Of a stretch of 64,000 nt of DNA, positions 7,525-22,256 are shown piece by piece (within the stretch, counting starts at the first letter, position 1; every line of letters begins with the position of its first letter). The notes under the pieces were generated by a model. It was not told the DNA's origin. It ran no database searches and saw only the letters and a list, made by a program, of their open reading frames with translations. The translations under genes were made by a program, and so were the position numbers. The DNA lies in NCBI GenBank assembly GCA_030690945.1, contig JAUYFM010000064.1:928-64927 (forward strand), read 5' to 3'. The stretch comes from Smithellaceae bacterium (GTDB taxonomy: Bacteria > Desulfobacterota > Syntrophia > Syntrophales > Smithellaceae).

Positions 7525-7677
7525 ATGGTTACAATACTGATTGTTATTTTAGTTCTTGCTCTCGTTGGCGTACTGCCTACCTGGCCTCACTCTAAGAGTT
7601 GGGGATTCTACCCCAGCAGCGGCGTTGGATTGCTTCTTCTGATTTTGGTCATCTTGCTGATAGCGGGGCGGATTTAA
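7525..7677 (+). CDS. DUF3309 family small membrane protein (50 aa)
   Basis: This ORF is not in the supplied track (<60 aa). Translation is MVTILIVILVLALVGVLPTWPHSKSWGFYPSSGVGLLLLILVILLIAGRI. The LPTWP..SWG.YPSGG core is the DUF3309 signature as I recall it. A GAAGGAG RBS lies upstream. Confidence 0.75.
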   Translation: MVTILIVILVLALVGVLPTWPHSKSWGFYPSSGVGLLLLILVILLIAGRI

Positions 7678-7876
7678 ACTCAAGATCAAGAAGATCGCAT
7701 AGGGAACTCAGCAATAATCCAGAATCAGAAGAAGCAGAAGGCGCCAGTGAAAAGCTAGGCGGCGGAGTTCAGGAAAAGGTCCGTCAAAAAAAGTTCCGGA
7801 TAAGTGAACAACAAGACGCCATCGGCCTGAATATTTTTTTACTAACCCATTTAACATTTAAAAAAGGAGAAATAAA

Positions 7877-8431
7877 ATGAAACAAACCAGAATTAAATTA
7901 TTTTTCATCGTGTGTATGGCTTTGATTATAGGAAGCCTCCCGGTTTCCTCTTACGCGGCCACGGCAGGTGAGATTGATGCCGGCGTCAATGCATCCCTCG
8001 ACCGGTTTGTCAAGGAAGTCAAGGGGGCGCAGGAGTTTCTTAACGCCGCCCAGGGAGTCCTTATCATCCCTAAGGTTATCCAGGGAGGGCTTGTGGTTGG
8101 CGCCGAGTATGGTGAGGGCGCCTTAAGGATCGGCGGAAAAACGGTTGCCTATTATAACATTGCTTCCGCATCTTTCGGAGCGCAAATCGGCGGCGAGTTA
8201 AAAGACATCATCCTTGTCTTCATGGATAAAACGGTCTTGAAGAAATTTCGTAACAGCCAAAACTGGAAAGCCGGTGTGGATGCCAAGGTAACCTTGATCA
8301 ATGTCGGCGTCGATGAATCCATAAATACGATGAAAATAAAGCAACCTGTTGTGGGATTTGTCTTTGGACAGAAAGGGCTGATGGTCGGCGCCACGATAGA
8401 AGGCTCGAAATTTACCAAAATGAAAAAATAA
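7877..8431 (+). CDS. SYLF (Ysc84/DUF500) lipid-binding domain protein, secreted
   Basis: 184-aa ORF with an AAGGAG RBS and a signal peptide (LPVSSYAATA). Glycine-rich beta repeats (GGLVVGAEYGEGAL, SFGAQIGG, GLMVGATIEGS) are typical of SYLF domains. Confidence 0.7.
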   Translation: MKQTRIKLFFIVCMALIIGSLPVSSYAATAGEIDAGVNASLDRFVKEVKGAQEFLNAAQGVLIIPKVIQGGLVVGAEYGEGALRIGGKTVAYYNIASASFGAQIGGELKDIILVFMDKTVLKKFRNSQNWKAGVDAKVTLINVGVDESINTMKIKQPVVGFVFGQKGLMVGATIEGSKFTKMKK

Positions 8432-8445
8432 ACAACGAGTAAAAG

Positions 8446-8498
8446 GGGACGGTTCTAATATCCCCCCCTCTTCTGTAAAGAAGTTAGAACCGTCCCCT
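8446..8498 (+). other. Perfect 14-bp-stem hairpin between the SYLF gene and the small lipoprotein gene
   Basis: GGGGACGGTTCTAA (8446-8459) is the exact reverse complement of TTAGAACCGTCCCC (8485-8498), with a 25-nt loop. There is no T-tract. Confidence 0.6.
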
Positions 8499-8549
8499 GA
8501 ACATATTCATTCAGCAATTAGCTTTTAATAAGATAAGGAGATGCAAATC

Positions 8550-8684
8550 ATGAAAAAGTGGAAGAGTATCATCGCCGTGTTGGCAATAGTCGCCCTTATT
8601 GCGGGACTGTCGAGCTGCAAAGAAGGTCCGCTGGAGAACGCCGGTAAGAAAGTCGATAAGGCCGTAGAAGACATCAAGAAATGA
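8550..8684 (+). CDS. Entericidin EcnA/B-like small lipoprotein (44 aa)
   Basis: This ORF is not in the supplied track. Translation is MKKWKSIIAVLAIVALIAGLSSCKEGPLENAGKKVDKAVEDIKK. An AAGGAG RBS lies 9 nt upstream. It has a lipobox (GLSSC) and an amphipathic C-terminal tail of the C..EGAGK..E.A type seen in entericidin-family lipoproteins. Confidence 0.55.
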   Translation: MKKWKSIIAVLAIVALIAGLSSCKEGPLENAGKKVDKAVEDIKK

Positions 8685-8770
8685 TGGCCATGGCGCAAAG
8701 ATAGACTTCTCTCCCATGATGTTTCTCCTTCTTTAATGTTGTCTGAAACATCTCCCCATTCTGTTGGATT

Positions 8771-9616
8771 TTACAAAGCAAGGGGGATGACGTCACCTGC
8801 CAGAATGACCTTGTCGTCCTCAGTGGTAATGGCATAGGAGCTGTGCTCGACAAGTTCGTACAGATGAATATACTTGGCCACTTCCACAGGCTCGCTGGTT
8901 TTTCTGCCGAAATATTTCCCCGGCTTGCTGAAGACATCTGTAATCACTCGGTCGTCGTAGATGGAAAAATCAAAGGAACTGTCAGTATCCCGGTTGCTGA
9001 TGTTTGTTGTTGACGGCAGTTCATCGTGAAATGCAATGCGCACATTAATATTGTTACGGTATTGGGTGAGAAGGATCTTCTGAAAATCAGTCTCGGCAAG
9101 GTTCTCGCGGTTGACTACAAAAATACGGGTGATCTTCACACCGCGTTCAATGGCGCGCAGATTGGCCTGGTAGAAATTGTGCAGGGCGCCCCGGGTATCC
9201 CATCCCGTGGTTATCCGGTCCACTATCTTGGCATAGTTAGCCGCCTGCTCCATCTGTTTGGCCCCTTCCAGATTGAATTCCGTCTCGTCCATGGGGATAT
9301 ATCCCTGCTGCAAGAGCGAAATAGTCCGCATGGCGGAAGCCACCAACTCATGGGCCTTACTCTGACATTCGGGATCGCTGATTCTGGCGACGGCGAATGT
9401 CAGCTCATGGGCTTGGTTATACTGTTCAAGCAATTCTGCACGGGTCTTTTCGATATCGTCCCGCAACAGATAGGTGACCAGTGATAGGAGGACGCCGATG
9501 CCAAAGATGGTATAGGCAGCTTCCGGATACCGGAGCACCTGGTGGAAAAAGACGGCAAGGGCTGATCCTGCGAGAAATTCGATCAGGACAGCTATTTTCT
9601 GTATCTTGATATTCAT
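8771..9616 (-). CDS. Hypothetical membrane-anchored protein (2 N-terminal TM segments, unknown C-terminal domain)
   Basis: 281-aa ORF. Its start overlaps the stop of the upstream EEP gene by 4 nt (ATGA). I recognise no confident family. The C-terminal strand pattern (GVKITRIFVV...INVRIAFHD...DFSIYDDRV) loosely resembles a PLD repeat but lacks HxK. Confidence 0.5.
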   Translation of the reverse strand: MNIKIQKIAVLIEFLAGSALAVFFHQVLRYPEAAYTIFGIGVLLSLVTYLLRDDIEKTRAELLEQYNQAHELTFAVARISDPECQSKAHELVASAMRTISLLQQGYIPMDETEFNLEGAKQMEQAANYAKIVDRITTGWDTRGALHNFYQANLRAIERGVKITRIFVVNRENLAETDFQKILLTQYRNNINVRIAFHDELPSTTNISNRDTDSSFDFSIYDDRVITDVFSKPGKYFGRKTSEPVEVAKYIHLYELVEHSSYAITTEDDKVILAGDVIPLAL

Positions 9617-10599
9617 GAGTAATTTCCTTTTTTATTTAAGAAGGATTCCGGTAAATTAATATGAGAAAAAAGCGGAAAATGGTCCGAGGGATAGCGCCTC
9701 TTTTGTCGCAATTGAATGATTTGCGCATTCTGCACACTAACCGTAGAAGGAACAAAAATATAATCAAGCTTGAAACGGAAAAAAAATCGGCGATACCCGT
9801 GGAACGTGGCCGCATTGCGATGGTCGGGATATCTTACACGAAAGGTGTCGGTTAAAGGGTTGGGGTTTTGCACCTTCCCTTCCGCTTTGGTGTTGATCAG
9901 CGTTTTACCTTTTAAATATTGTATCGGCACACTCTTTTCTCTGGCATTGAAATCACCGGTCAAAACGAAAGCGTCCGGATAAGACCGCGCATGAATCCGC
10001 CGGGTCAACAGGATGACGCCTTTTTTTCGTGAACGCTGCGAAAGATGATTTAAATGGGTATTATAAAAATAAAATGCCTGCCCGGATTCTTTTTCAATCA
10101 GCCGCGCCCACGTGCAGTTTCGCGGCATGATATTTCCCCATCCTCTTGACTCCGGAATATCAGGTGTGTCCGAATACCAGAAAGCGCCTTCTTCAGAAAG
10201 AACGAAACGTGCCACCTTATAAAAAATGGGATTATGCAAAACTTTATTGTCGCCCGAGCTGATAATGTTGACCATCTCATAGCCGGGAAGCATGGCGCGA
10301 ATTTCAGAAATTTGAAAATCCAGAGCTTCCTGCAGACCCAAAACATCCGGGGAATAATCCTTCAATATCTCATTCACCAGATCGCGGCGGAATATCCAGT
10401 GATTTTTGCCATCCTGCTTTGTTCCGCGTCGGATATTGAAACTCATAATATTGATATTCAACCCGGTATCGGGCAGCACATCAGAAAACGAATCCGCAGG
10501 TAATTGGTGATATCTGCGTTTTGAACGGAACCTCCCCAGCCATTTTACCGTCCGGGAAACCGGCCTGAATGTTTTTTTGACGAATTGCAGTTGTTTCAT
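9613..10599 (-). CDS. Endonuclease/exonuclease/phosphatase (EEP) family protein
   Basis: 328-aa ORF carrying EEP motifs: IMSFNIRRG, VLGLQEA, LTGDFN and a C-terminal PSDHFPL. Confidence 0.8.
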   Translation of the reverse strand: MKQLQFVKKTFRPVSRTVKWLGRFRSKRRYHQLPADSFSDVLPDTGLNINIMSFNIRRGTKQDGKNHWIFRRDLVNEILKDYSPDVLGLQEALDFQISEIRAMLPGYEMVNIISSGDNKVLHNPIFYKVARFVLSEEGAFWYSDTPDIPESRGWGNIMPRNCTWARLIEKESGQAFYFYNTHLNHLSQRSRKKGVILLTRRIHARSYPDAFVLTGDFNAREKSVPIQYLKGKTLINTKAEGKVQNPNPLTDTFRVRYPDHRNAATFHGYRRFFFRFKLDYIFVPSTVSVQNAQIIQLRQKRRYPSDHFPLFSHINLPESFLNKKGNYS

Positions 10600-10743
10600 T
10601 TTCTATCTTTTCCTTATCTAAACCGGTCGGGATTCTTTTCAATTCACAATTAATGATTATAATAGCTTAAGCATGAAATTGAAAAAGGCAAATCCTTCTG
10701 ATGGGGAATGTGCATGATTTTTTTTAAAATAAAGAATAAACCG

Positions 10744-12135
10744 ATGAAAACCGTCAAACTTGTCTTTTTGTTTTGTTTGTTCCTATCCATTTTGAACCTC
10801 GGCAATGGATGTGCGACCTTGCCGAATGTGTCTGAAAAAATGAATGAGGCACCGGTTGGACAGAAACCCCGTCAGATCGCTTCGTCAAAAGGACTCTTAT
10901 CTCCCCAAAAAAGCAAGGCCATCATGGAACGTCTGAAGAAATCGGTCAACCCGACGGACATTCTGGAACGTTACACTGCAGTGGTAGAATCGGTCACAGA
11001 AAGCCCGCTGACCAAGGGGAACAAAGTTTCCTTGCTTATTGATGGTCCGGCTACCTATGCCGCGATGTTCGAAGTTATACGGAATGCCAAAAACCATATC
11101 AACTTGGAAACATTTATCATCGAAGATGATGAGATTGGTGGTAAATTTACTGACCTGCTGTTGAAAAAACAGAAGGAAGGCGTTCGGGTCAATATTATTT
11201 ACGACAGCGTTGGAAGCCTGACAACACCCGAATCTTTTTTCAAACGCTTGAGGGACGGGGGAATTCAGGTGGTCGAATTCAATCCGGTAAGTCCGTTCAA
11301 GGCTCCCGGAAGCTGGTTCCTGATGCACCAGGATCACCGCAAGATTTTGATTGCTGACGGTAAAGTCGCCATTATCGGAGGTATCAACATCAGCAACGTT
11401 TATTCAAGCAGGCTTTCCGGCAGGAAGAAAGTAAAAGGAGAGCCTCTAACCTGGCGTGATACAGATATCCAAATTGAAGGACCTGCTGTAATGGAAGTCC
11501 AAAAGCTTTTTCTGGAAACCTGGTCCAAGCAGAAAGGACCGACACTCGCCGGACACAACTATTTACCCGATCAGAAAGAATACGGAAAGGCTCTGGTGAG
11601 AATCGTTGGCAGTACACCAGGCACGGACAACCGAATTACGTTTATCATGTATGCGGCCGCGATCACGTATGCGGAGCATTCCATTCATCTGACAAATGCC
11701 TATTTTATCCCGGACGATCAAATATTAGATGCCTTCAAGGATGCTGCCCGGCGCGGTGTTGATGTCAAGATTATTCTCCCCTCAACCACCGATTCATCGC
11801 TGGTCTTAAACGCAGCGCGGCATAATTATTCCGGGCTTCTGAAAGCGGGGGTGAAGATATACGAACGCCGCACCGTCCTCTTGCATGCGAAAACTGCGGT
11901 CATTGACGGCGTCTGGTCAACGGTCGGCTCCACAAATTTGGATTACTGGAGCCTCCTAAGCAATGATGAGGTGAACGCGGTTGTCCTGAGTCGTGAGTTC
12001 GCGGTAGAGATGGAGCGCATGTTTGCCAATGATCTTGCCCAATCCGACCAGATTCAAAAGGATAAGTGGGAAAAGAGGCCTTTATCGCAAAAAATCAAGG
12101 AGGCGGCTGCACACTTATTTGCCCGTTGGCTGTAA
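10744..12135 (+). CDS. cls: Cardiolipin synthase-like phospholipase D family protein (two HKD motifs), lipoprotein-type N-terminus
   Basis: ORF 10708-12135, with the ATG at 10744 (MKTVKLVF) preferred. It has the lipobox-like LGNGC. The two HKD motifs are HRKILIADGK..GGINIS and HAKTAVIDG..VGSTNLD. Confidence 0.85.
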   Translation: MKTVKLVFLFCLFLSILNLGNGCATLPNVSEKMNEAPVGQKPRQIASSKGLLSPQKSKAIMERLKKSVNPTDILERYTAVVESVTESPLTKGNKVSLLIDGPATYAAMFEVIRNAKNHINLETFIIEDDEIGGKFTDLLLKKQKEGVRVNIIYDSVGSLTTPESFFKRLRDGGIQVVEFNPVSPFKAPGSWFLMHQDHRKILIADGKVAIIGGINISNVYSSRLSGRKKVKGEPLTWRDTDIQIEGPAVMEVQKLFLETWSKQKGPTLAGHNYLPDQKEYGKALVRIVGSTPGTDNRITFIMYAAAITYAEHSIHLTNAYFIPDDQILDAFKDAARRGVDVKIILPSTTDSSLVLNAARHNYSGLLKAGVKIYERRTVLLHAKTAVIDGVWSTVGSTNLDYWSLLSNDEVNAVVLSREFAVEMERMFANDLAQSDQIQKDKWEKRPLSQKIKEAAAHLFARWL

Positions 12136-12193
12136 GACATCGCCGAAGATCGGTTTACACCAGCAAAAAAGGTCAAATGCAGAATGCTTCCCT

Positions 12194-13276
12194 ATGAGAA
12201 AAATCAAACGGTTTAGTTTTTTTACCCTATTTCTTGCGGCACTTTTAGTTGGCGACGGTTCTATGACCGTCAACGCTGTTCACGAGGAGGGAACGACGCA
12301 AGGAAAACAGCAGCTGGCGCATCATACGACGAATGGTTTTCGCAATATTTATGATTATCCGGAACACGGATTCGCGAGTTTTCTGCGCTGGAAATTGGGG
12401 CGCGCACCTGATGAAGGACCGGCCATTATCCCTGTTCAGAAGATACCCTATGCGCCGGATATTGTTGCACCGGATTATCAGCGTATCGATCATCCCAATC
12501 CCGCTAAAATACAGATTACCTGGATAGGTCATGCAACATTTTTAATCCAGGTTGAGGGGATCAATATCTTAACGGATCCTGTTTTTAATAACAAAGCATC
12601 GCCTCTTGGCATTGGGTTTGAACGGAAGAGTCCTCCGGGGATACCCTTTGATCGCCTGCCGCCGATCCATGCCGTTCTCCTGAGTCACAATCACTATGAT
12701 CATCTCGATTTATACACGGTTAAAAAGTTGGGAAACTCGCCAAAATATTTTATCCCTCTGAAGCTTGGACAGTGGTTCCGCGATCAGAAGATTACGAACT
12801 ATACGGAGATGGATTGGTGGAACACATCGATCTTCAAAGGCATCCGCGTTGTGTCTGTACCGGGCCAGCATTTCTCCAGGCGAGCCGTCCGTGACGGCAA
12901 TAAAACACTTTGGGCAGGGTGGGTACTGGAAACGAAACACGGGAAGATACTCTTTGCCGGCGATACGGGATACTCTCCCCATTTTAAGGAAATCAGAGAA
13001 AAGCTGGGGCCGATGCGCCTGGCGCTATTGCCCATCGGGTCCTATCGACCTCGTTGGTTCATGAAGACCATCCATATGGACCCCCCGGATGCCGTGTCCG
13101 CCCACAAGGATCTGCAGGCAGAGCAATCCATTGCTATGCATTGGGGGACCTTTTATATAGCCGATGAACCGCTGGGTGAACCGCCCCTCTATTTAAAAAG
13201 AGCCCTGAAAGAGGCGTCCATCAGTGATGATTCCTTCCTGATAATGAAATTTGGTGAAACGCGGATTTTTGAATAA
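12194..13276 (+). CDS. MBL-fold metallo-hydrolase, NAPE-PLD-like
   Basis: ORF 12023-13276, with the ATG at 12194 (MRKIKRFSFF, signal peptide) preferred. It carries the HxHxDH motif LLSHNHYDHLD. The overall length and order resemble N-acyl-phosphatidylethanolamine-PLD-type Zn hydrolases. Confidence 0.75.
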   Translation: MRKIKRFSFFTLFLAALLVGDGSMTVNAVHEEGTTQGKQQLAHHTTNGFRNIYDYPEHGFASFLRWKLGRAPDEGPAIIPVQKIPYAPDIVAPDYQRIDHPNPAKIQITWIGHATFLIQVEGINILTDPVFNNKASPLGIGFERKSPPGIPFDRLPPIHAVLLSHNHYDHLDLYTVKKLGNSPKYFIPLKLGQWFRDQKITNYTEMDWWNTSIFKGIRVVSVPGQHFSRRAVRDGNKTLWAGWVLETKHGKILFAGDTGYSPHFKEIREKLGPMRLALLPIGSYRPRWFMKTIHMDPPDAVSAHKDLQAEQSIAMHWGTFYIADEPLGEPPLYLKRALKEASISDDSFLIMKFGETRIFE

Positions 13277-13380
13277 AAACAGGATGAAAAGTCTGCTCTT
13301 CTGCTCCTGTGGAAAAGTGAGGATCTGCCCGCTATCTTCGATACGCAACGGATTGAAAATACGGAGGCCCCGGAGAGTAT

Positions 13381-13529
13381 CCCTCAACATGCTGAGGTTC
13401 TGCTAAATATTGAGGCCACTTAAATCCTTTCATGATTTGCTGCTGTTCTTTCACCTTAAGCAAACATCCTGTTATTAAAGGATAATCCAATTTTCTGATT
13501 TTCATTCGTCTATTGGCCGACTATTTGCA
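13381..13529 (+). promoter_or_regulatory. Sigma-54 promoter cassette copy 2
   Basis: The UAS at 13382-13415 is CCTCAACATGCTGAGG-TT-CTGCTAAATATTGAGG. The -24/-12 element at 13514-13529 is TGGCCGactatTTGCA. The ATG at 13623 lies 95 nt downstream. Confidence 0.75.
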
Positions 13530-13622
13530 ATTATTAAACAATCGCTATGCTTTCGTCTAATGGAAGGGCATCTTTTTGAATAAATCCAACTCTGCTCACT
13601 GGTGGGATTTAAGAGAGGTAAC

Positions 13623-14873: not shown

Positions 14874-14892
14874 GCCGAACCGGAGAGTGGCC

Positions 14893-15864
14893 ATGACCTT
14901 AAAAAATATCTGGATTCTGATTAAAGCCGCGGCATCATCCTGGGTCGACGACTATGCACAAAGCATGGGAGCGGCACTGGCTTACTACACCTTGTTCTCG
15001 ATCGCACCTTTATTGCTGATTGTGATTTCGGTTGCCGGGCTTATTTTCGGTGTCGAAGCGGCGCGCGGCGAAATTGTCGGACAATTGCAAGGCCTGATGG
15101 GGCGGCAGGGCGCCGAGGCTGTACAAGGTTTGCTCGAAAGTGTGAACAAGCCAGCCGAAAGCGTCACCGCCATGCTGATCGGGGGAATTCTGCTATTAAT
15201 CGGTGCAACAACGGTGTTCGCCGAATTGCAGGATGCCCTGGATCGTATATGGCGCGCACCCAAAAGAAACAACAGTGGAATCTGGGAATTGCTGCGCGAG
15301 CGTGTGCTATCTTTAGGTATGATCATGGGCATCGGCTTTTTATTAATGGTGTCACTGGTGGTTAGTGCGGCGCTGGCCGCACTGGGAAAATTGTGGGGAC
15401 CTCTGTTCGCAGACTGGGGAATCATTGCAAACGTGATTGAGCTTCTGGTCAGCTTCGTTTTCACCACAACCATGTTTGCCATGATCTACAAGATCATGCC
15501 ACGCGTGAAAGTTGACTGGGCGGACGTGTGGATCGGCGCCGCTGTAACCGCTCTGCTCTTCACGATCGGCAAATTCCTGATCGGGTTCTATATCGGCAAG
15601 AGCGGTTTGACTTCGGCATTCGGCGCCGCCGGTTCGCTGGTTGTCATGCTGGCGTGGGTGTATTACTCCGCCCAGATATTCCTGATGGGCGCGGAATTTA
15701 CCTGGGCTTATGCGCTGACATTCGGATCGCACAGAGAGCAGCCGGTACCCGCCGCTGCGCCCATTGTTCCAAGCCAGACGGCAAAAGGACAGCCTGATAA
15801 ACACATGATTGCAGCGAAGCAAGCAGCGGTGGCGGGGCCTATCGAAAAGATCAAAAACAAATAG
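14893..15864 (+). CDS. YihY/BrkB family membrane protein
   Basis: The track ORF 14611-15864 is over-extended. The ATG at 14893 gives MTLKNIWILIKAAASSWVDDYAQSMGAALAYYTLFSIAPLL, the canonical YihY N-terminus. Confidence 0.8.
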   Translation: MTLKNIWILIKAAASSWVDDYAQSMGAALAYYTLFSIAPLLLIVISVAGLIFGVEAARGEIVGQLQGLMGRQGAEAVQGLLESVNKPAESVTAMLIGGILLLIGATTVFAELQDALDRIWRAPKRNNSGIWELLRERVLSLGMIMGIGFLLMVSLVVSAALAALGKLWGPLFADWGIIANVIELLVSFVFTTTMFAMIYKIMPRVKVDWADVWIGAAVTALLFTIGKFLIGFYIGKSGLTSAFGAAGSLVVMLAWVYYSAQIFLMGAEFTWAYALTFGSHREQPVPAAAPIVPSQTAKGQPDKHMIAAKQAAVAGPIEKIKNK

Positions 15865-15965: not shown

Positions 15966-16160
15966 ATGGATCACAAGCAAAAAAAGGACCTGCAAAAGAA
16001 GACAGAAAGAAAACAGGACAACAAGGAGAAAAAGAAAAGCCAGAAGATACGAGAGTGGGAACAGTCAAAGGGAACCAGGGTCATCCGTCCCGTCTGGTTT
16101 GCCGTGGTGGGGCTCACGCTCTCTATGGCGGCATTGCTCTACTGGTTTTTTCTCCGGTAG
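15966..16160 (+). CDS. Hypothetical small protein: Lys/Gln/Glu-rich N-terminus plus one C-terminal TM
   Basis: 64-aa ORF with a weak AGGGGTG RBS. I recognise no family. Confidence 0.35.
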   Translation: MDHKQKKDLQKKTERKQDNKEKKKSQKIREWEQSKGTRVIRPVWFAVVGLTLSMAALLYWFFLR

Positions 16161-16237: not shown

Positions 16238-16597
16238 ATGCGTAAAATTATTGTTGCCATCTTTCTTGTTTTAACATTTCTTTGTTCCTGCTCAAATTTA
16301 AACAATGCTACCAAACCGAAACCTGATGATGCTATTAAACTGAAACCCGATGATGCCATTGCTTACAGCAACAAGGGGATTGCTTACAATAACCGCGGCC
16401 AGTATCAGCGTGCCATTGAAGAATACAACGAGGCCGTCAGCCTGAAGTCTAACGATGCCTTGCACTACACCAACCGGGCGGGTGCTTATTTTATGCAGGG
16501 CAACAAAAAGCTTTTCTGCCGTGATATACAAAAAGCTTGCACATTGGGAGATTGCAAATTGTTAGAAATGGCTAAAGGCAAGCATTATTGCCCCTGA
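16238..16597 (+). CDS. TPR-repeat lipoprotein
   Basis: 119-aa ORF with a GGAGGTG RBS and the lipobox FLCSC. TPR-like repeats are present (AYSNKGIAYNNRGQYQRAIEEYNEAV, LHYTNRAGAYFMQGN). Confidence 0.7.
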   Translation: MRKIIVAIFLVLTFLCSCSNLNNATKPKPDDAIKLKPDDAIAYSNKGIAYNNRGQYQRAIEEYNEAVSLKSNDALHYTNRAGAYFMQGNKKLFCRDIQKACTLGDCKLLEMAKGKHYCP

Positions 16598-16668: not shown

Positions 16669-16715
16669 TGGTTCATGAAGACCATCCATATGGATCCCCC
16701 GGATGCCCCGTCCGC
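16669..16715 (+). pseudogene. 47-bp fragment of the MBL-hydrolase gene (copy of 13055-13101)
   Basis: 44 of 47 nt are identical to 13055-13101 (TGGTTCATGAAGACCATCCATATGGA.CCCCCGGATGCC..GTCCGC). The fragment lies in non-coding DNA 10 bp upstream of cassette copy 3. Confidence 0.75.
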
Positions 16716-16724
16716 TCAAAGTAT

Positions 16725-16874
16725 CCCTCAACATACTGAGGACCCACCAGATATTGAGGTCAAATGAGCGTCTCATGCTTTTAAAACTTTCTTTGCCGAC
16801 CAACCTAACAACCCGATATTAAATAATTAATTTAATATTCACGTTTGGACTCGGCTCTTGGCAAGCTACTTGCT
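16725..16874 (+). promoter_or_regulatory. Sigma-54 promoter cassette copy 3
   Basis: The UAS at 16726-16759 is CCTCAACATACTGAGG-AC-CCACCAGATATTGAGG. The -24/-12 element at 16859-16874 is TGGCAAgctacTTGCT. The ATG at 16907 lies 34 nt downstream. Confidence 0.8.
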
Positions 16875-16906
16875 AATATATTTGTATATTCAAAAGGAGG
16901 TTTGTC

Positions 16907-17107
16907 ATGAAATGGACAGGTATGTATCTTATGGGTTATGTTATCCTGATTGGTGGTCTTCTCGCTGCGCTTTGGAAAATGGGTGTTTTGGCCAGCATCG
17001 GTACAGCATGGACCCTGATTGCAGCGGTGATCGCAATTGGTATTGGCATCATGCTCGCAGTCGTCAGTAGCAGTAATAAAGGAAATATCGAAATCGGCCG
17101 AAAGTGA
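16907..17107 (+). CDS. Hypothetical small membrane protein (66 aa, 2 TM)
   Basis: An AAGGAGG RBS lies 7 nt upstream. Two hydrophobic helices are present. It is the first gene after cassette 3. Confidence 0.6.
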   Translation: MKWTGMYLMGYVILIGGLLAALWKMGVLASIGTAWTLIAAVIAIGIGIMLAVVSSSNKGNIEIGRK

Positions 17108-17156
17108 ATTATAAAAACATCGGTTCAGACAGAGCTGAGAAAGGAGGCCAAATACC

Positions 17157-17291
17157 ATGCAAATCGCCATATCGCCACAGCCGGTGGTTTCTTTAATCGC
17201 GGGAATATTGATTTTTATTTTCCCGAAACTATTAAATTATATCGTTGCCATCTATCTCATTGTCATTGGCATTCTCGGGTTGATCCGCTGA
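17157..17291 (+). CDS. DUF3096 family small membrane protein (44 aa)
   Basis: This ORF is not in the supplied track. Translation is MQIAISPQPVVSLIAGILIFIFPKLLNYIVAIYLIVIGILGLIR, preceded by an AAGGAGG RBS. The P.LL.YIVAIYLI..G...LI ending is the DUF3096 pattern as I recall it. Confidence 0.65.
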   Translation: MQIAISPQPVVSLIAGILIFIFPKLLNYIVAIYLIVIGILGLIR

Positions 17292-17333
17292 TGGGATTGC
17301 CAATTTTTTATTTAAATTATTGAGGGAGGATGT

Positions 17334-17783
17334 ATGATTTCAAAAATTCTTGTGCCGTCAGACGGATCAAAAACAGCACAAATAGCAGCCTTGTTCGCGG
17401 TTGACATCGCAAAACAGTTGAAAGCCTCCATTATTGTGCTGAGCGTTATTGATCAGCGCTCACTGATTGCTCAGACGGCACCAGCATCTAAGACACCCAG
17501 GCACACCATAGAACCTATGGAAGACTATCTGCAAGAGGCCGCCGGAGAGTATGCCGGAGAAATAAAGAAACTGTGCGATAAAAGCGGTGTTGCCGCGACG
17601 ATTTTGATCAAGATGGGGCATCCCGTGGAGGTGATAGTGAAAGAGGCGAAAAGGTCAAAGTCAAATCTTATTGTCATGGGCTCCCATGGCCGGAGCGCCT
17701 TATCAGCCACCGTCCTTGGCAGTGTTTCTTATGGCGTTATCCACAATGATAAAAGCATTCCCGTCCTTATTGTAAGGGGTTGA
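17334..17783 (+). CDS. Universal stress protein (UspA family)
   Basis: 149-aa ORF with a GAGGGAGG RBS. It begins KILVPSDGS and carries the C-terminal ATP-binding motif LIVMGSHGRSALSATVLGSVS. Confidence 0.9.
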   Translation: MISKILVPSDGSKTAQIAALFAVDIAKQLKASIIVLSVIDQRSLIAQTAPASKTPRHTIEPMEDYLQEAAGEYAGEIKKLCDKSGVAATILIKMGHPVEVIVKEAKRSKSNLIVMGSHGRSALSATVLGSVSYGVIHNDKSIPVLIVRG

Positions 17784-17833
17784 TCGCCATTGGGCACAAG
17801 CCCGAAAAGAAGGAAAGAAAGGAAAAGTTTATT

Positions 17834-18169
17834 ATGACAGAGCATGAAAAACCACAGGATCATTTATTCGTTGGATTACTGATCGGAGGGGCTTTAGGCG
17901 CATTAGCCGGCATTCTCTTCGCACCGAAATCCGGAAAAGAACTGCGCTCTGAGATCAGGGAGAAAAGAAGCGCGGTTTTTAAGGATGCAAAAGAAATTTA
18001 TGCTGATGCCAGTACGAAAGCAAAAGAGATTATTGAGGAGGCCACGCATCAAGCGATGGCGTTAAAGAAGGACGCCGATAGACATCTCGCAGAGACACGC
18101 CAAAAAACAAAAGAGATTTTGGCCCATGGCGAAAAAAAACAGGCCGAAGCCGGTGTTACAGAAAAATAA
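17834..18169 (+). CDS. YtxH domain-containing protein
   Basis: The ATG at 17834 lies within ORF 17780-18169. It has a TM segment followed by the LFAPKSGKELRSEI motif and a long charged helix. Confidence 0.8.
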   Translation: MTEHEKPQDHLFVGLLIGGALGALAGILFAPKSGKELRSEIREKRSAVFKDAKEIYADASTKAKEIIEEATHQAMALKKDADRHLAETRQKTKEILAHGEKKQAEAGVTEK

Positions 18170-20576
18170 GACACAGAGGAAAATAAAATCTCAACCCGAA
18201 GGTGATGATCATAAATCCACTGATAGCGATTCTATTGGCCATGAGTATTGCTATCAGTGGGGTTCCCTATTGGCAGCACGGACATTCCGGCGTATCCGCT
18301 CAGTCTTAGGCGGACTGCGGTGGCAGCGTGGCCTCATTCGCCTTCTGATTTGCACGACCGTCATGATAATCACTCTCGTTGCGCTCGGATTATATCGCAT
18401 CTATTTTGATAGAACCAACCTGCCTGCCCTAGAACCATTTACCCGTTTTGAGTTTGCAACCATCGGTCACGTATACGATGCCAATGGTCAGCCGCTCGTG
18501 GAAATGGCCAGAGAGTACCGACGGAATATCCGGTATCAGGACATTCCACCAGTTGTTCGAGATGCGATCCTCGCCGCCGAGGACAAGAATTTCTTCACCC
18601 ATAACGGCGTTGACTATTCCGTCATTCCTCGCGTCCTCAGCAAAATCAGATTCGGAACGCTGGCAACAAGAATTACAACATTAAGCCGTGAGGACGAGGT
18701 GAAGAGCGAGGCGATCTTCCCGCATGGCGGATCGACCATCACCCAGCAACTCGTGCGGTGTCATTTTCTCAAAGACCTGACGAGTTTCCAAAACATGACG
18801 GCTCAGGAAAACAGCGATCAACTTCTGCACGGCGTGCTCTTGCCCCGTGTACTGTCCTATCTGATTGGTTCACAAAGCGTCAACATGATGGTGCGGAAGC
18901 TCGAGGAGATTCGACTGTCCTTGTGGGTCGAAAACAAGATGCAGGAGCACTTCGGTTCCAAACACCGCGCCAAGGAAGAAATTTTGGCCCGCTACGCCAG
19001 TTTGATCTACATGGGAAATGGTCAGTACGGATTTGCGGCAGCAGCGGAATATTATTTTGGCCGGCCTCTCACTACATTCACCGTGGATGACGCAGACAAG
19101 GCAGCCGTGCTTGCCTCTATCGCCAAATCACCGCGCAACTACGCGCCCGGCGCGAATAACTCAGAGAGAAGCTTGCACCGGAGAAATCAAATTCTGGCGC
19201 TGATGACGACAAACGGTTTCATTTCTCAAGACAGACTGAAGGATGCCGAACAACGCCCGATTCAGGCCGCCGTAGGACGCAAAAACAAGGCGCTTCTGGG
19301 GTCTGCGGTTGTAAGCAATGTCCTGGAAGAGCTCAAAGGCCGCCATGTCGACCTCAGCATTGAAGACCTTCTGCAGGGCCGCATCCAGATTTACTCGACG
19401 GTGGACGCCCGGGTGCAACAAATTGTGGACGATGCCCTCGAGCATGGTCTCGCGCTTTACGAGAAGCGGCGCCCTGCCGCCAAAGGGCTGATCCAGGGTT
19501 CTGTCGTTGTGCTGAGAAATCGTGATGCAAGCATTCTCGCCGAAACGGGTGGCCGCAGGCTCTACCAGGACCGTTCCAGTTCATACAGCGATTTTAACCG
19601 CGTCACAAAGTCTCTGAGGCAACCGGGTTCCGCGATGAAACCTATTGTCTATCTCGCTGCGTTTCAGCAGGGAATATTTAATCTGGATACGCTGGTTCCC
19701 GACGAACCCATCAGCGTTCCCGACAAAGGGAAACAGAAGACGAAATGGATCTCAAACTACGATGGTCAATTCAAAGGCATGATCCCGCTCAGGGAAGCCC
19801 TGGCACAATCCAGAAACGCCGTGGCAATTTGGATCACCGAACGGATTGGGATTGACAGCGTCATGTGGATGGCGCGTAGCCTGGGGATCCAAACACCGCT
19901 TTCGCCCTATGTCACAACTGCGCTAGGTGCGTCCGAAGTGAATTTACTGGAGTTGGCCAATGCGTATCGTACAATGGCCTCGGGCATCTTCGCGAAGCCG
20001 TATGTGATCCGAAAGATCGTTAACAATTCCGGTGAGGTGGTAGCCGATAATGATCACAGCAAACCTCCGGTCGCCGTCGTCCTCTATGCGCTTGCGCTCA
20101 TTCAGGAAGGCCTGCGCGGTATTGTGCGCATGCCCTCCGGCACGGCTCATGCGCTTGAAGCAAGCGGTTTTCCGATCCCCGTTATGGGAAAGACAGGAAC
20201 AACCAATAACTTCAGGGATGCGCTCTTTGTAGGGTCCACTTACGGCCCTGAAGGAATCACTATTGCCGTGCGTATCGGCTTTGATGACAACCGTTCCCTC
20301 GGACACAAAGAAACCGGCGGCCGGGTTGCGCTTCCGGTGTTCAGAAAAATTATGCTGAACGTGTACCGCAAAATGCTGGCGGGACCTGTGCCTGCATTTC
20401 CGGTTCAAATGGAACAAAGGATTAATAATTACCTGAAAGGCGATCCCGTTGAAGATGCGTCGGCACCGGAGAAAAATATCCCTCAAAATACTGAGGCTCC
20501 ACCAAATATTGAGGCCAAACGAATCATTCCAAATCATGTGCTGCTCTCTCTTTTTCCTCTAACGTTCCGTTATTAA
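18126..20576 (+). CDS. Class A penicillin-binding protein (PBP1A family: glycosyltransferase + transpeptidase)
   Basis: 816-aa ORF. GT51 motifs are EDKNFFTHNGVD and GGSTITQQL. Transpeptidase motifs are SAMKP (SxxK), SRN and KTGTT. It overlaps the ytxH-like gene by 44 nt, and its 3' end runs into cassette copy 4. Confidence 0.85.
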   Translation: MAKKNRPKPVLQKNKTQRKIKSQPEGDDHKSTDSDSIGHEYCYQWGSLLAARTFRRIRSVLGGLRWQRGLIRLLICTTVMIITLVALGLYRIYFDRTNLPALEPFTRFEFATIGHVYDANGQPLVEMAREYRRNIRYQDIPPVVRDAILAAEDKNFFTHNGVDYSVIPRVLSKIRFGTLATRITTLSREDEVKSEAIFPHGGSTITQQLVRCHFLKDLTSFQNMTAQENSDQLLHGVLLPRVLSYLIGSQSVNMMVRKLEEIRLSLWVENKMQEHFGSKHRAKEEILARYASLIYMGNGQYGFAAAAEYYFGRPLTTFTVDDADKAAVLASIAKSPRNYAPGANNSERSLHRRNQILALMTTNGFISQDRLKDAEQRPIQAAVGRKNKALLGSAVVSNVLEELKGRHVDLSIEDLLQGRIQIYSTVDARVQQIVDDALEHGLALYEKRRPAAKGLIQGSVVVLRNRDASILAETGGRRLYQDRSSSYSDFNRVTKSLRQPGSAMKPIVYLAAFQQGIFNLDTLVPDEPISVPDKGKQKTKWISNYDGQFKGMIPLREALAQSRNAVAIWITERIGIDSVMWMARSLGIQTPLSPYVTTALGASEVNLLELANAYRTMASGIFAKPYVIRKIVNNSGEVVADNDHSKPPVAVVLYALALIQEGLRGIVRMPSGTAHALEASGFPIPVMGKTGTTNNFRDALFVGSTYGPEGITIAVRIGFDDNRSLGHKETGGRVALPVFRKIMLNVYRKMLAGPVPAFPVQMEQRINNYLKGDPVEDASAPEKNIPQNTEAPPNIEAKRIIPNHVLLSLFPLTFRY

Positions 20577-20628
20577 TGAATTAATAAAATCTTCTGATTC
20601 TCCTTCGGCTATTGGCAGACTCCTTGCT
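20480..20628 (+). promoter_or_regulatory. Sigma-54 promoter cassette copy 4
   Basis: The UAS at 20481-20514 is CCTCAAAATACTGAGG-CT-CCACCAAATATTGAGG and lies inside the PBP ORF. The -24/-12 element at 20613-20628 is TGGCAGactccTTGCT. The ATG at 20685 lies 58 nt downstream. Confidence 0.8.
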
Positions 20629-20684
20629 ATTACAATTGGTATGATCATGTTCATTATACATCGTACGAAAGAAGGTTCTTTTTT

Positions 20685-20993
20685 ATGATCCTTGTCATCA
20701 CACGCATGAAGGTCATCTCTGAGAAACGTTTGGAGTTGTCCCAGACGATTGCTTCACTATCCGGTTCTATCAGGAAGGAGAAGGGATGTAAGCGTTGCGA
20801 CTTCTGCCAGAGTATCGAGGATGAAGATCGACTCTTTCTTATCGAAGAATGGGATACCAGGGAAAATCTTATGAACCACATGAAATCGGAGAACGCGAGT
20901 GTGTTCCGGGGTGGTGCGCAGAATCTTCTCCAAGGTCCATATGAAAGGAGATTCCACACCGTTTTCAGCCCTGCAGGGATGGCGGAGACTTAA
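20685..20993 (+). CDS. Antibiotic biosynthesis monooxygenase (ABM) family protein
   Basis: 102-aa ORF with the ABM pattern GC.RCDFCQSIEDEDRLFLIEEWDTRENLMNHMKSE. Confidence 0.7.
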   Translation: MILVITRMKVISEKRLELSQTIASLSGSIRKEKGCKRCDFCQSIEDEDRLFLIEEWDTRENLMNHMKSENASVFRGGAQNLLQGPYERRFHTVFSPAGMAET

Positions 20994-21045
20994 AAAGTCA
21001 CGCAATGAATCATTTAACAATCAGTCTTATTTGAGAGGAGTAACC

Positions 21046-21153
21046 ATGAAATTGAACATCCTGCAACCATGCGCCAGAGACCAGGTCCCGATATTGAGTT
21101 ATATCGTCACGGTCTTTCTCATCACCATTGGCATTTCTGCGCTGATCCGCTGA
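21046..21153 (+). CDS. Small membrane protein (35 aa), truncated DUF3096-like paralog
   Basis: This ORF is not in the supplied track as such. Translation is MKLNILQPCARDQVPILSYIVTVFLITIGISALIR, preceded by a GAGAGGAG RBS. Its C-terminal half aligns with that of the DUF3096 protein at 17157-17291 (YIVAIYLIVIGILGLIR). Confidence 0.45.
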   Translation: MKLNILQPCARDQVPILSYIVTVFLITIGISALIR

Positions 21154-21258
21154 TTGGTTTGCGCATCTCGTATAAATAGGACCCCGCAATGATGGAAGTC
21201 TTGCGGGATGAAAGAATTCAAACAACAACCGTAAAAACAACAAAAGGAGAACGGACAA

Positions 21259-22014
21259 ATGAAAACAATGAACAGACTCGTAGTAATGATAGTGGCGGCA
21301 GTGGTGCTGCTGGCGCTCAGCATGCCCGTGTATGCATCCAAGTTGGACAGCCGTATCGAATCATCCGCCAAAAATTCGTATGTATTCCAGACTTATCTTC
21401 AGGGTGATGATATTAAAATTCAGTCCGTAAATGGCGCTGTGACCTTAACGGGAACTGTCTCCCAGGAATCACACAAAGCATTAGCCCACGAGACCGTAGC
21501 AGGTTTGCCGGGGGTTAAGAGCGTGGACAACAAGCTGGAAATCAAAGGGGAACGCCCCGCTGATAACACGGATGCATGGATCACAGCAAAAGTAAAAACC
21601 ATACTCCTGTTTCATCGGAACGTGAGCGTTATGACAGAGATTAGCACCAAAGACGGCATCGTCACCCTGAAAGGCGATACGTTAAGCCAGGCACAAAAGG
21701 ATCTGACAACCGAATACGCAAAAGATGTCGAAGGGGTCAAAGGCGTCAATAATGAGATGACCATCGGGAAGACTCCGAAAAAGAAACAAACGGTCGGCTC
21801 TAAGATTGATGACGCTTCCATCACCGCTCAGGTCAAGGTGACGCTGCTCTATCACCGCTCGACCAGTGGCATCAATACCTCGGTCACCACGAAGAGGGGT
21901 GTTGTGACATTGACCGGCAAGGCGAAAAATGCTGCTGAAAAAGACCTGGCTGCCAAATTCGCCAACGACGTAAATGGTGTAAAGAGTGTAAATAACCGGA
22001 TGACCATCGAGTAA
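21259..22014 (+). CDS. BON domain protein (OsmY-like, three BON repeats), secreted
   Basis: 251-aa ORF with a signal peptide (LSMPVYASK). It has three repeats of the type V.V....G.VTL.G.V.S...K..A...A..V.GVKSV.N.L. Confidence 0.85.
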   Translation: MKTMNRLVVMIVAAVVLLALSMPVYASKLDSRIESSAKNSYVFQTYLQGDDIKIQSVNGAVTLTGTVSQESHKALAHETVAGLPGVKSVDNKLEIKGERPADNTDAWITAKVKTILLFHRNVSVMTEISTKDGIVTLKGDTLSQAQKDLTTEYAKDVEGVKGVNNEMTIGKTPKKKQTVGSKIDDASITAQVKVTLLYHRSTSGINTSVTTKRGVVTLTGKAKNAAEKDLAAKFANDVNGVKSVNNRMTIE

Positions 22015-22035
22015 AGTCCGGAATCAAATTAACCA

Positions 22036-22077
22036 CTCATTGCCTTCCGGCACGGGAGTGTACCGGAAGGCAATGAG
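22036..22077 (+). other. Perfect 15-bp-stem hairpin between the BON gene and the lmo0937-type gene
   Basis: CTCATTGCCTTCCGG (22036-22050) is the exact reverse complement of CCGGAAGGCAATGAG (22063-22077), with a 12-nt loop. There is no T-tract. Confidence 0.6.
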
Positions 22078-22106
22078 AATAAATTATCAGAGGAGAGGAG
22101 AATCAT

Positions 22107-22256
22107 ATGTTGTGGACAATTGCTGTAGTATTGTTAATTTTGTGGGCTCTGGGGCTGGTGACAGGTTATACGATGGGTTCTTTTATTCATGTCCTGCTGG
22201 TCATTGCAATAATTGTTGTACTCGTTAGAGTCATTCAGGGGCGACGGGTCATTTAG
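22107..22256 (+). CDS. lmo0937-type small membrane protein (49 aa)
   Basis: This ORF is not in the supplied track. Translation is MLWTIAVVLLILWALGLVTGYTMGSFIHVLLVIAIIVVLVRVIQGRRVI, preceded by a GGAGAGGAG RBS. The MLWTI..VL.ILW.LG...Y..G..IH.LLVIA..V pattern is characteristic of that family. Confidence 0.75.
   Translation: MLWTIAVVLLILWALGLVTGYTMGSFIHVLLVIAIIVVLVRVIQGRRVI

Follow-up and report, generated by a model that had tools for sequence, protein, structure and literature searches.

Four operons of this Smithella-like genome lie behind copies of one sigma-54 enhancer-promoter module of about 200 bp, and encode mainly very small membrane and envelope proteins of the kinds that other bacteria switch on through general-stress sigma factors. 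The wiring to sigma-54 and the existence of one shared regulon are well supported, whereas the stress trigger is inferred from gene content only. The initial annotation of the 64-kb stretch analysed here (hereafter the window) had described four cassettes followed by such genes, and this observation proved correct. Its interpretation, a sigma-54-dependent general or envelope stress regulon built largely from small membrane proteins and wired through a single shared upstream site, is supported, with induction by stress remaining an inference.

To test whether the cassettes are real repeats, we counted their core sequence in the window. The core CCCTCAANATNCTGAGG occurs exactly four times, always on the + strand (7318, 13381, 16725 and 20480), against 0 expected in 100 shuffles, and a profile built from 54 cassettes retrieved the same four copies (E 1e-40 to 1e-54) and no others. 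Each cassette comprises a double-palindrome upstream site, an AT-rich block and a GG-N10-GC (-24/-12) sigma-54 promoter located 133-134 nt after the start of the upstream site. In cassette 1 (7303-7488), the upstream site (7318-7352) consists of the palindrome CCTCAATATGCTGAGG and the half-degenerate palindrome CCACCAGATATTGAGG, followed by the AT-rich block at about 7405-7432, the promoter TGGCAGGATACTTGCT at 7452-7467, a predicted transcription start near 7478, and, from 7479, a decayed relic of the start of an ABM gene. Cassette 2 (13346-13569) has its upstream site at 13381-13415, its promoter TGGCCGACTATTTGCA at 13514-13529 and a predicted start near 13540, while cassette 3 (16707-16916) has its upstream site at 16725-16759, its promoter TGGCAAGCTACTTGCT at 16859-16874 and a predicted start near 16885. 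In cassette 4 (20454-20679), the upstream site (20480-20514) and the promoter TGGCAGACTCCTTGCT (20613-20628) precede a predicted start near 20639, and the ABM-start relic forms a 15-codon ORF (20641-20688) whose stop overlaps the ATG of the real ABM gene.

We next asked which proteins are encoded behind the cassettes, all on the + strand, using Pfam and NCBIfam models and dN/dS against orthologues in relatives; loci of other genomes are designated by L numbers. Operon 1 starts with a 50-aa DUF3309 protein with two hydrophobic helices (7525-7677; Pfam E 4.6e-21; dN/dS 0.08-0.36 against 7 orthologues), followed by a 184-aa Ysc84/SYLF-domain protein with a signal peptide (7877-8431), absent from the closest relative (L042), and by a 44-aa lipoprotein with the lipobox LSSC (8550-8684; dN/dS 0.11 against L023). 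The latter had been annotated as entericidin-like, but no entericidin or other Pfam or NCBIfam model matched it. Operon 2 encodes an AI-2E family transporter (13623-14873; E 1e-52), for which an alternative GTG start lies at 13602, and a YihY/BrkB family membrane protein (14893-15864; E 2.7e-52), a homologue of which is found behind a cassette in L006. These are followed by a 64-aa protein with a basic N-terminal part and one C-terminal transmembrane helix (15966-16160), which belongs to no described family but lies behind cassettes in L051, L015 and L022 (dN/dS 0.12-0.16), and by a last gene that had not been listed initially, encoding a 119-aa TPR protein with an N-terminal signal or lipoprotein-like sequence (16238-16597; TPR_11, E 3e-13).

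Operon 3 starts with a 66-aa two-helix membrane protein of no described family (16907-17107), which is also the first gene behind the cassette in L048, L039, L008 and L006 (dN/dS 0.08-0.19). It continues with a 44-aa DUF3096 protein (17157-17291; E 1.2e-17; dN/dS 0.12-0.5), a universal stress protein of the UspA family (17334-17783; E 2.3e-28), missing in the closest relative (L048), and a YtxH-like protein (17780-18169; E 1.3e-17), whose true start is probably the ATG at 17834, giving 111 aa as in L048. The class A penicillin-binding protein that follows (18126-20576; transglycosylase plus transpeptidase domains) overlaps the YtxH stop and is hence probably co-transcribed, although its transcription from cassette 3 is only suggested by the absence of a gap; its last ~32 codons (20480-20576) are encoded by cassette 4. 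Operon 4 comprises a 102-aa ABM-domain protein (20685-20993; E 1.8e-14, aligned from residue 1), a 35-aa ORF (21046-21153), a secreted triple-BON, OsmY-like protein (21259-22014; E 1.8e-46) with homologues behind 8 other cassettes, and a 49-aa DUF5670/lmo0937-family membrane protein (22107-22256; Pfam E 6e-16; NCBIfam NF033488 E 5e-18; dN/dS 0.08-0.25). The 35-aa ORF, initially called DUF3096-like, is a truncated copy that matches only the C-terminal half of DUF3096, corresponds to a DNA repeat 73% identical to 17230-17311, and has a single weak homologue elsewhere; it may be decaying, and the ORF at 21069-21179 in the mechanical list is the wrong frame. A 149-aa and a 55-aa ORF on the same strand (22365-22959), without any Pfam hit, are a possible tail of operon 4, but their membership is uncertain. 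Operon boundaries are inferred from spacing; a terminator scan was uninformative. Taken together, all but two of the initial family assignments were confirmed. Seven ORFs, rather than the five or six proposed, are under 70 codons, and six of them show purifying selection, with dN/dS mostly 0.08-0.25.

To determine how widely the module is conserved, we searched 185,579 species genomes with the upstream-site pattern. This search returned 50 loci in 33 Syntrophales-type assemblies plus one chance hit. Of these 51 matches, 48 have a -24/-12 promoter 123-136 nt downstream, 41 of them at 133-135 nt, although cassette sequences have diverged to 52-76% identity, indicating that spacer length is under selection. 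Upstream-site columns are 90-99% conserved, against 30-50% for the flanks. Each cassette of the window is closer to the orthologous cassette in other genomes, in front of the same first gene, than to its neighbours in the window, and the copies are therefore old and maintained.

Two independent gene sets from other genomes gave the same families, plus CsbD, LTXXQ (Spy/CpxP), OmpA and DUF948. Among 170 proteins encoded behind genome cassettes, we identified BON (7), DUF5670 (7), ABM (7), OmpA (5), DUF3309 (4), DUF3096 (4), CsbD (3), LTXXQ (Spy/CpxP-like, 3), Usp (2) and YtxH (2), and among 77 proteins behind activator-anchored cassettes (see below), ABM (14), DUF5670 (8), BON (4), YtxH (4), CsbD (3), DUF3309 (2) and DUF3096 (2). 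Small proteins are enriched, since 71 of 189 (38%) are under 80 aa, against 1 of 49 (2%) background genes (Fisher p = 6e-8). However, the regulon of relatives also holds genes that are not obviously related to stress, encoding a malic enzyme, a radical SAM protein, an enoyl-CoA hydratase and an ice-binding-like protein.

The comparison with relatives also pointed to a candidate activator. In L018, L041, L026 and L005, a PAS-PAS-Sigma54_activat-HTH_8 protein with the GAFTGA motif ends 20-150 nt before the upstream site. Of 30 metagenome loci encoding an orthologue at least 74% identical, 26 have a cassette starting 0-120 nt after the stop codon on the same strand, whereas none of 50 loci encoding paralogues at most 60% identical has one. 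This activator is not encoded in the window, where the only enhancer-binding protein is an NtrX-like response regulator, 38% identical in the C-terminal region, and its presence in the source genome or in its closest relatives (WRPE01, JANYAF01) could not be shown. In 17 of the 26 linked loci, ABM is the first gene behind the cassette, and in activator-adjacent cassettes the ABM ATG lies 12-14 nt after the -12 C. At least 20 of 72 cassettes not flagged as followed by ABM retain a decayed copy of the ABM 5' coding sequence, although a few of these 72 are ABM-fronted cassettes missed by the filter (such as L052 and L068), and several cassettes keep the decayed 3' end of the activator gene (..RMHKLGIVRPETKEPD, then stop).

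With reasonable confidence, we propose that the four cassettes are paralogous copies of one complete sigma-54 regulatory module. In this model, two adjacent 16-bp palindromes (CCTCAA-N4-YTGAGG, centres 18 bp apart) at about -125 to -160 constitute the binding site for a dedicated enhancer-binding protein with several PAS sensor domains, a GAFTGA AAA+ domain and a Fis-type helix-turn-helix, and the conserved AT-rich block probably bends the DNA, although IHF-consensus matches within it are only one-mismatch hits. Upon reception of a signal by its PAS domains, the activator would assemble on the palindromes, loop to the closed sigma-54 holoenzyme complex and open it by ATP hydrolysis, so that all four operons would switch on together from a tightly off state. 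The products, mostly very small inner-membrane proteins, lipoproteins and periplasmic or envelope proteins, and probably including the class A penicillin-binding protein, represent the family mix found in the sigma-B, RpoS and EcfG general stress regulons. The regulon is therefore most likely a general or envelope stress, or stationary-phase, protection programme of Smithellaceae/Syntrophales. Regarding its origin, the module would have arisen at the junction between the activator gene and a near-leaderless ABM gene, its founding first gene, and have been copied long ago in front of other operons, taking fragments of both flanking genes with it. Our analysis demonstrates the anatomy and conservation of the module, the gene families, the coding status of the small ORFs, the genomic linkage of activator and cassette, and the fossil gene ends, while binding of that activator, DNA bending, transcription start sites, co-induction and the stress signal are deductions from sequence.

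The same regulon might instead constitute a specific response to oxygen or to redox/energy imbalance in a strict anaerobic syntroph, with PAS domains sensing O2 or redox state and the ABM protein acting as a small oxidoreductase. PAS domains are indeed the only sensor domains of the candidate activator, ABM is the founding gene, a PAS-type sigma-54 activator that senses redox through an Fe-S cluster, OrpR, is known in Desulfovibrio (PMC8359166), and a thioredoxin-like DsbH, a dodecin and an FAD/CCG protein each occur once in relatives. We nevertheless consider this possibility unlikely, as no rubrerythrin, superoxide reductase, peroxiredoxin or catalase family appears among the 25 most frequent families shown for each of three censuses, and the recurrent families (BON, CsbD, YtxH, DUF5670, Usp, Spy-like, OmpA) are typical of osmotic, stationary-phase and envelope responses.

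It is also conceivable, although doubtful, that the upstream site is bound by another of the many enhancer-binding proteins of these genomes or by a repressor, the PAS activator gene simply marking the ancestral locus of the module. Linkage is not binding, the window and the 8-kb loci of its closest relatives contain no PAS activator, and receiver-domain genes lie upstream of some cassettes (L002, L016, L035, L037 and L050). However, sigma-54 promoters need an enhancer-binding protein, the contrast between orthologues and paralogues holds across loci whose activators are only 74-94% identical, the activator-adjacent copy carries the most perfect palindrome, CCTCAATATATTGAGG, and the genomes CAVQCU01 and SPRUCE 388 have both the activator and several dispersed cassettes. 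Finally, the repetition of the whole ~200 bp rather than of the binding sites alone, the presence of fragments of unrelated genes and the rearrangements next to cassettes (a DNA repeat, and indels against L042 and L048) could suggest a selfish or neutral dispersed repeat, such as a MITE-like element or recombination debris, without regulatory meaning. This reading is already largely refuted: all four copies, and nearly all of about 100 copies elsewhere, point toward a downstream gene starting within about 20-100 nt, the upstream site, the -24/-12 elements and the spacer length are far better conserved than the rest, copies are retained in front of the same genes across genomes with saturated synonymous sites, and no Rfam family matches.

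The families behind the cassettes, CsbD, YtxH, BON/OsmY, Usp, lmo0937/DUF5670, small lipoproteins and many tiny membrane proteins, are those of the general stress regulons driven by sigma-B in Bacillus and Listeria, RpoS in E. coli and EcfG in Alphaproteobacteria. Among them, lmo0937 is sigma-B dependent in Listeria (PMC7690807). The control logic differs, with a sigma-54 promoter and a putative ATP-dependent enhancer-binding protein with PAS sensors instead of a sigma-70-family stress sigma with an anti-sigma or partner-switching module, and with a promoter module copied whole rather than evolving as short -35/-10 motifs. Control of membrane or envelope stress genes by sigma-54 and an enhancer-binding protein is shared with PspF/psp, with ZraSR, and with the small general stress (DVU3305) and envelope stress (DVU1419, DVU3381) regulons of Desulfovibrio vulgaris (PMC4641369), a precedent in a related group of anaerobes. 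Those activators are response regulators, or PspF, which has no sensor domain, and their regulons comprise one to three operons, whereas the candidate activator is a one-component multi-PAS protein with many predicted target operons per genome; PspA and ZraP families do not appear among the top 25 families shown per census. OrpR of D. vulgaris, which acts with IHF (PMC8359166), has a similar one-component PAS-AAA+-HTH architecture, upstream palindromes and a proposed IHF-assisted loop, but targets the orp operons, and the upstream-site sequence described here is specific to Syntrophales-type genomes. As for the putative mobile promoters described in a survey of promoter reuse (PMC3575422), a regulatory region is duplicated in front of non-paralogous genes within a genome, here with spill-over into coding sequence. 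These copies are old, at 52-63% identity within the window, below the criterion of that survey (80% over 50 nt) except in the upstream-site core (76-86%), and the unit is a complete enhancer, probable bend and sigma-54 promoter with an identifiable source locus.

The window is most similar to Syntrophaceae/Smithella-type assemblies, being 92-94% identical in DNA to contigs of WRPE01 and about 91% identical to JANYAF01. A 35-50-nt repeat occurs four times on its + strand, and its core, CCCTCAANATNCTGAGG, has 4 matches against 0 in 100 shuffles. Alignment of the four regions revealed a shared unit of about 200 nt, which starts with two adjacent 16-bp palindromes, CCTCAAnATnCTGAGG then CCACCArATATTGAGG, followed by an AT-rich block (GTTATTAAAGGATnAATCCAA) and by a -24/-12 element, TTGGCA-N6-(C/T)TTGCT. 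The GG and GC doublets, exactly 10 nt apart as in the sigma-54 consensus TGGCA-N6-TTGCW, are present in all four copies: three promoters fit TGGCANNNNNNTTGCW exactly, against 0.49 expected, and the fourth is TGGCCGACTATTTGCA. In all four cassettes the palindromes, a putative upstream activator site with dyad symmetry of the kind expected about 100-200 bp upstream of a sigma-54 promoter, start 133-134 nt before the -24 element, and transcription starts, expected about 12 nt after the -12 GC, are predicted near 7478, 13540, 16885 and 20639. A profile HMM built from 54 cassettes found these four (E 1e-40 to 1e-54) and nothing else in the 64 kb, and no Rfam family matched them. A search for IHF consensus sequences returned only one-mismatch hits. 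A scan for sigma-70-like promoters yielded 21 sites against 20.7 expected, with none at the cassettes, and the accompanying terminator scan, also at chance level, gave no operon boundaries.

To verify the family assignments of the initial annotation, we compared the downstream genes with Pfam and NCBIfam. DUF3309, Ysc84/SYLF, AI-2E, BrkB, DUF3096 (17157-17291), Usp, YtxH, a class A PBP, ABM, three BON domains and DUF5670, which is NCBIfam's lmo0937 family, all scored above the gathering score. By contrast, the 44-aa lipoprotein at 8550-8684, which had been called entericidin-like, had no Pfam hit at E <= 0.01 (scanned as a 47-aa version), including entericidin (PF08085), and no NCBIfam hit, so that this call is not supported. 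The 64-aa and 66-aa proteins have no family. The 35-aa ORF that had been called DUF3096-like lies at 21046-21153, the ORF predicted mechanically at 21069-21179 being in the wrong frame. The correct-frame ORF, scanned with NCBIfam only, gave no hit, whereas the Pfam scan was of the wrong-frame ORF. Only the C-terminal half of the correct-frame ORF is homologous to the DUF3096 gene at 17157-17291 (73% identical in DNA), the first helix being lost and only the second one kept. Thus, the observation of four cassettes heading operons rich in very small proteins held, with the exception of these two family calls.

Whereas a greedy longest-ORF caller miscalled small genes, a caller based on codon usage and ribosome-binding sites, trained on long ORFs, recovered every small ORF of the finding, seven of which are under 70 aa. 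Comparison with orthologues in relatives showed that the small ORFs are under purifying selection, with dN/dS values of 0.08-0.36 for DUF3309, 0.11 for the 44-aa lipoprotein, 0.12-0.16 for the 64-aa protein, 0.08-0.19 for the 66-aa protein, 0.12-0.5 for DUF3096 and 0.08-0.25 for DUF5670. The 35-aa ORF has only one weak homologue and may be decaying. Between the BON gene and the DUF5670 gene, at 22036-22077, lies a perfect 18-bp-stem hairpin, which is not followed by a T-run on the + strand and has only a chance-level Rfam hit; it could be an attenuator, an mRNA-stabilising element or a processing element inside operon 4.

The surroundings of the cassettes bear traces of rearrangement. A 50-nt stretch from inside the 3' part of the metallo-beta-lactamase-fold gene (12194-13276), at 13055-13104, is repeated at 92% identity immediately upstream of cassette 3, at 16669-16718, which looks like a relic of a rearrangement or duplication between the cassette 2 and cassette 3 regions. 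Comparison of 7679-8548 and 8699-9646 with L042, the locus of the closest relative (WRPE01), showed that the latter lacks the SYLF gene of operon 1 as well as the 281-aa family-less gene at 8771-9616 (minus strand), while L048, another locus of a relative, lacks the Usp gene and the AI-2E/BrkB operon; cassette-flanked segments seem to be gained and lost as units. Genes between and around the cassettes are lipid- or envelope-related: a YhdP/AsmA-like protein (3884-7144, minus strand), an endonuclease/exonuclease/phosphatase-family protein (9613-10599, minus strand), a PLD-type (cardiolipin-synthase-like) enzyme (10714-12135), the metallo-beta-lactamase-fold protein and an LPG-synthase-TM protein (50471-51616). 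They have no cassette of their own, but the PLD and metallo-beta-lactamase pair is syntenic with a cassette in four loci of relatives, L007, L029 (Smithella sp. SCADC, JQDQ01000221), L038 and L008.

We next asked whether the module is conserved. Scanning one genome per species (185,579 species) with CCCTCAA-N4-CTGAGG-N11-ATTGAGG gave 51 loci, where about one hit was expected by chance, and one hit, in an archaeon, lacks the rest of the cassette. The other 50 come from 33 assemblies titled Smithella, Smithellaceae, Syntrophaceae, Syntrophus, Syntrophales or "delta proteobacterium", plus one each titled Geobacter sp., Desulfobacterium sp. N47 and Proteobacteria bacterium. The positions left unspecified in the pattern are also conserved. 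Of the 51 matches, 48 have a GG-N10-GC promoter 123-136 nt downstream, 41 of them at 133-135 nt, and the consensus shows 90-99% conservation in the palindromes and the promoter, and 60-90% in between. The HMM found 74 cassettes in these 8-kb loci, often clustered. In some relatives (L007 7206-7515, L010 5561-5831, L023 5374-5809 and L006 5036-5346) two cassettes are arranged back to back and share the palindromic upstream site, so that one enhancer appears to serve two divergent sigma-54 promoters. Each window cassette is closer to the cassette in front of the same gene in other genomes (up to 88%) than to the other window copies (52-63%), indicating that the copies are ancient and retained, and that the spacer length has been kept despite about 40% substitution.

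To define what the module drives elsewhere, we collected 170 non-window proteins called downstream of genome cassettes. The Pfam census comprised BON 7, DUF5670 7, ABM 7, OmpA 5, DUF3309 4, DUF3096 4, ice-binding-like 4, CsbD 3, LTXXQ (Spy/CpxP) 3, Usp 2, YtxH 2 and SpoIIAA-like 2, with single occurrences that include Band_7, BrkB, MlaC and dodecin. Of all 189 cassette-driven proteins, 38% are under 80 aa (median 104 aa), against 2% of the other genes in the window called with the same caller (median 238 aa; Fisher p = 6e-8). These data independently support the interpretation of the initial annotation, that the operons form a sigma-54-dependent regulon with the content of a general or envelope stress response, and add the classical general-stress protein CsbD and the envelope-stress chaperone family Spy/CpxP. 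Hallmark families of general stress regulons (CsbD, YtxH, BON/OsmY, Usp, lmo0937-type and small envelope proteins) are found across the window and its relatives, and lmo0937 itself is down-regulated in sigB mutants of Listeria (PMC7690807). The ice-binding-like (PF11999) proteins, found behind cassettes in L024, L036, L040 and other loci of relatives, many of which come from peat or bog metagenomes, hint that cold or freezing may be among the relevant conditions, although the window has no such gene.

We then searched for the activator. The only enhancer-binding protein in the window (51663-53042, minus strand) is NtrX-like, forms a pair with an adjacent NtrY-like histidine kinase (the pair spanning 51663-55288, minus strand), is 38% identical to the candidate activator described below in the C-terminal region and shows no link to the cassettes; it was therefore rejected as the cassette activator. 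In five genome loci, however, a different enhancer-binding protein gene lies upstream of a cassette, and in four of them it ends 20-150 nt before the upstream site on the same strand. Its architecture is two or more PAS domains, a Sigma54_activat domain with GAFTGA, and HTH_8. Metagenome contigs were scanned with its conserved C-terminal 170 aa. Thirty loci have an orthologue at least 74% identical, and in 26 of them a cassette starts 0-120 nt after the stop codon on the same strand; of the four exceptions, one contig ends 38 nt after the gene and one match is truncated. By contrast, none of 50 loci with paralogues at most 60% identical contains a cassette. This is strong genomic linkage, but not proof of binding, and neither this candidate activator nor rpoN is encoded in the window; the model would expect, in the same genome, rpoN, a protein containing WRIEGKDGAA...HPSTLRAR and the sequence CCCTCAATATATTGAGG. 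The activator-adjacent copy has the most perfect palindrome, CCTCAATATATTGAGG. Since activator-adjacent cassettes mostly have TTGAGG whereas the genome scan pattern required CTGAGG, that scan missed most of them and recovered only a few.

The activator-adjacent loci also point to the origin of the cassettes. Behind the activator, the first gene is ABM in 17 of 26 loci, and its ATG lies 12-14 nt after the C of the -12 GC, at or within about 3 nt of the expected start site, without a Shine-Dalgarno sequence. The Pfam ABM model aligns from residue 1, so this ATG is the real start, and we infer that the mRNA is probably leaderless. The cassette consensus after the promoter, ATGATCCTGGTCATCATACGAATGAAGGTCCTTTCT, is exactly this ABM start (MILVIIRMKVLS). 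At least 20 of 72 cassettes not flagged as ABM-followed keep a decayed copy at the same place, matching at least 20 of 36 positions, the 99.9th percentile of shuffles, although a few of the 72 (e.g. those of loci L052 and L068) are ABM-fronted cassettes that the filter missed. On the other side, several cassettes with no activator gene upstream still carry a decayed activator 3' end, ..RMHKLGIVRPETKEPD*. The module was therefore copied from the activator-ABM junction.

In the window, the relic of the ABM start keeps an ATG 12-13 nt after the -12 C in cassettes 4 and 1. In cassette 4 it opens a 15-codon ORF (20641-20688) whose TGA overlaps the real ABM ATG (ATGA), which could allow translational coupling, while in cassette 1 it opens a 38-codon ORF (7479-7595) that overlaps the DUF3309 start in another frame, and its AAGGAG now serves as the Shine-Dalgarno sequence of DUF3309. 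Both are potential leaderless upstream ORFs on sequence grounds alone, and the arrangement is not conserved in the relative's locus L037. The class A PBP reading frame, in turn, runs through the upstream site of cassette 4 and stops in the conserved TCTAAC of the cassette, so that its last ~32 residues (20480-20576) are encoded by cassette DNA. In some metagenome loci the regulon is one long string behind the activator, such as L062, where the order is ABM, three small proteins, DUF5670, a 74-aa protein, DUF3309, DUF3096 and YtxH. The census of the 77 proteins of those loci is ABM 14, DUF5670 8, BON 4, YtxH 4, CsbD 3, DUF3309 2, DUF3096 2 and DUF948 2. In the window's lineage the genes are split into several operons, each with its own copy.

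Taken together, these results are best explained, with fairly good confidence, by one PAS-sensing sigma-54 activator that would switch on all cassette-driven operons, the products of which would remodel or protect the membrane and envelope under stress or in a non-growing state. The anatomy of the module is solid and its copy-and-paste history unusually explicit, whereas the physiology is inferred from gene content, as are, from sequence alone, the dependence of transcription on rpoN, the start sites, the binding of the activator and the co-induction of the operons by several stresses, in organisms that are difficult to work with. A further-reaching reading, which we consider possible but somewhat less likely than not, is that in Smithellaceae/Syntrophales a single multi-PAS sigma-54 activator does the job that the stress sigma factors sigma-B, RpoS and EcfG do elsewhere, driving a general-stress-type regulon made largely of proteins under 80 aa that grew by copying the entire 200-bp enhancer-promoter module from the activator-ABM junction to new operons, with fossil fragments of both flanking genes still visible, and that the founding ABM gene is expressed as a leaderless sigma-54 transcript. 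Sigma-54 systems are known for tight on/off control of specialised functions, and a large sigma-54 regulon whose content mirrors the general stress regulons of other phyla would show that the same protective set of tiny envelope proteins can be recruited under a quite different control logic, here in slow-growing syntrophs that are hard to study experimentally. The regulon also gives DUF3309, DUF3096, DUF5670/lmo0937 and the two unnamed 64- and 66-aa proteins, all under purifying selection, a defined regulatory context and conserved partners. The fossil gene ends provide an unusually explicit example of a regulon expanding by duplication of a complete enhancer-promoter unit, and the predicted binding site, activator and start sites are amenable to testing in a heterologous host.

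Other explanations appear less likely. A redox- or oxygen-specific response would fit the PAS domains and ABM, but no classical oxidative-stress enzymes are seen among the 25 most frequent families of each census of relatives, and we regard it as unlikely. That a different protein binds the site is more doubtful still, although the adjacency of activator and cassette is correlative. The possibility that the cassettes are a meaningless dispersed repeat is very improbable, being contradicted by their orientation, selective conservation and orthologous retention.

Several elements of this system have precedents. Sigma-54 stress systems exist, namely Psp, ZraSR, and small "general stress" and "envelope stress" regulons in Desulfovibrio vulgaris (PMC4641369), and a PAS-type sigma-54 activator working with IHF, OrpR, is described (PMC8359166). 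We found no paper on this regulon, on a sigma-54 stress regulon in Syntrophales, or on sigma-54 in Smithella or Syntrophus. Promoter reuse is a recognised phenomenon, for which putative mobile promoters are defined by at least 80% identity over at least 50 nt between upstream regions of non-paralogous genes (PMC3575422); here, the 50-nt upstream-site core is 76-86% identical between window copies and the whole cassette only 52-63%, and a common origin is shown instead by the fossil gene ends. The system is not Psp, since no PspA family was found in the window operons or in the top 25 families listed for each census of relatives, and since the candidate activator has PAS sensor domains whereas PspF-type activators lack a sensor domain. 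Because its promoters are of the -24/-12 type and not of the type recognised by a sigma-70-family stress sigma factor, the system is not a member of the sigma-B, RpoS or EcfG regulons, but it may work like them.
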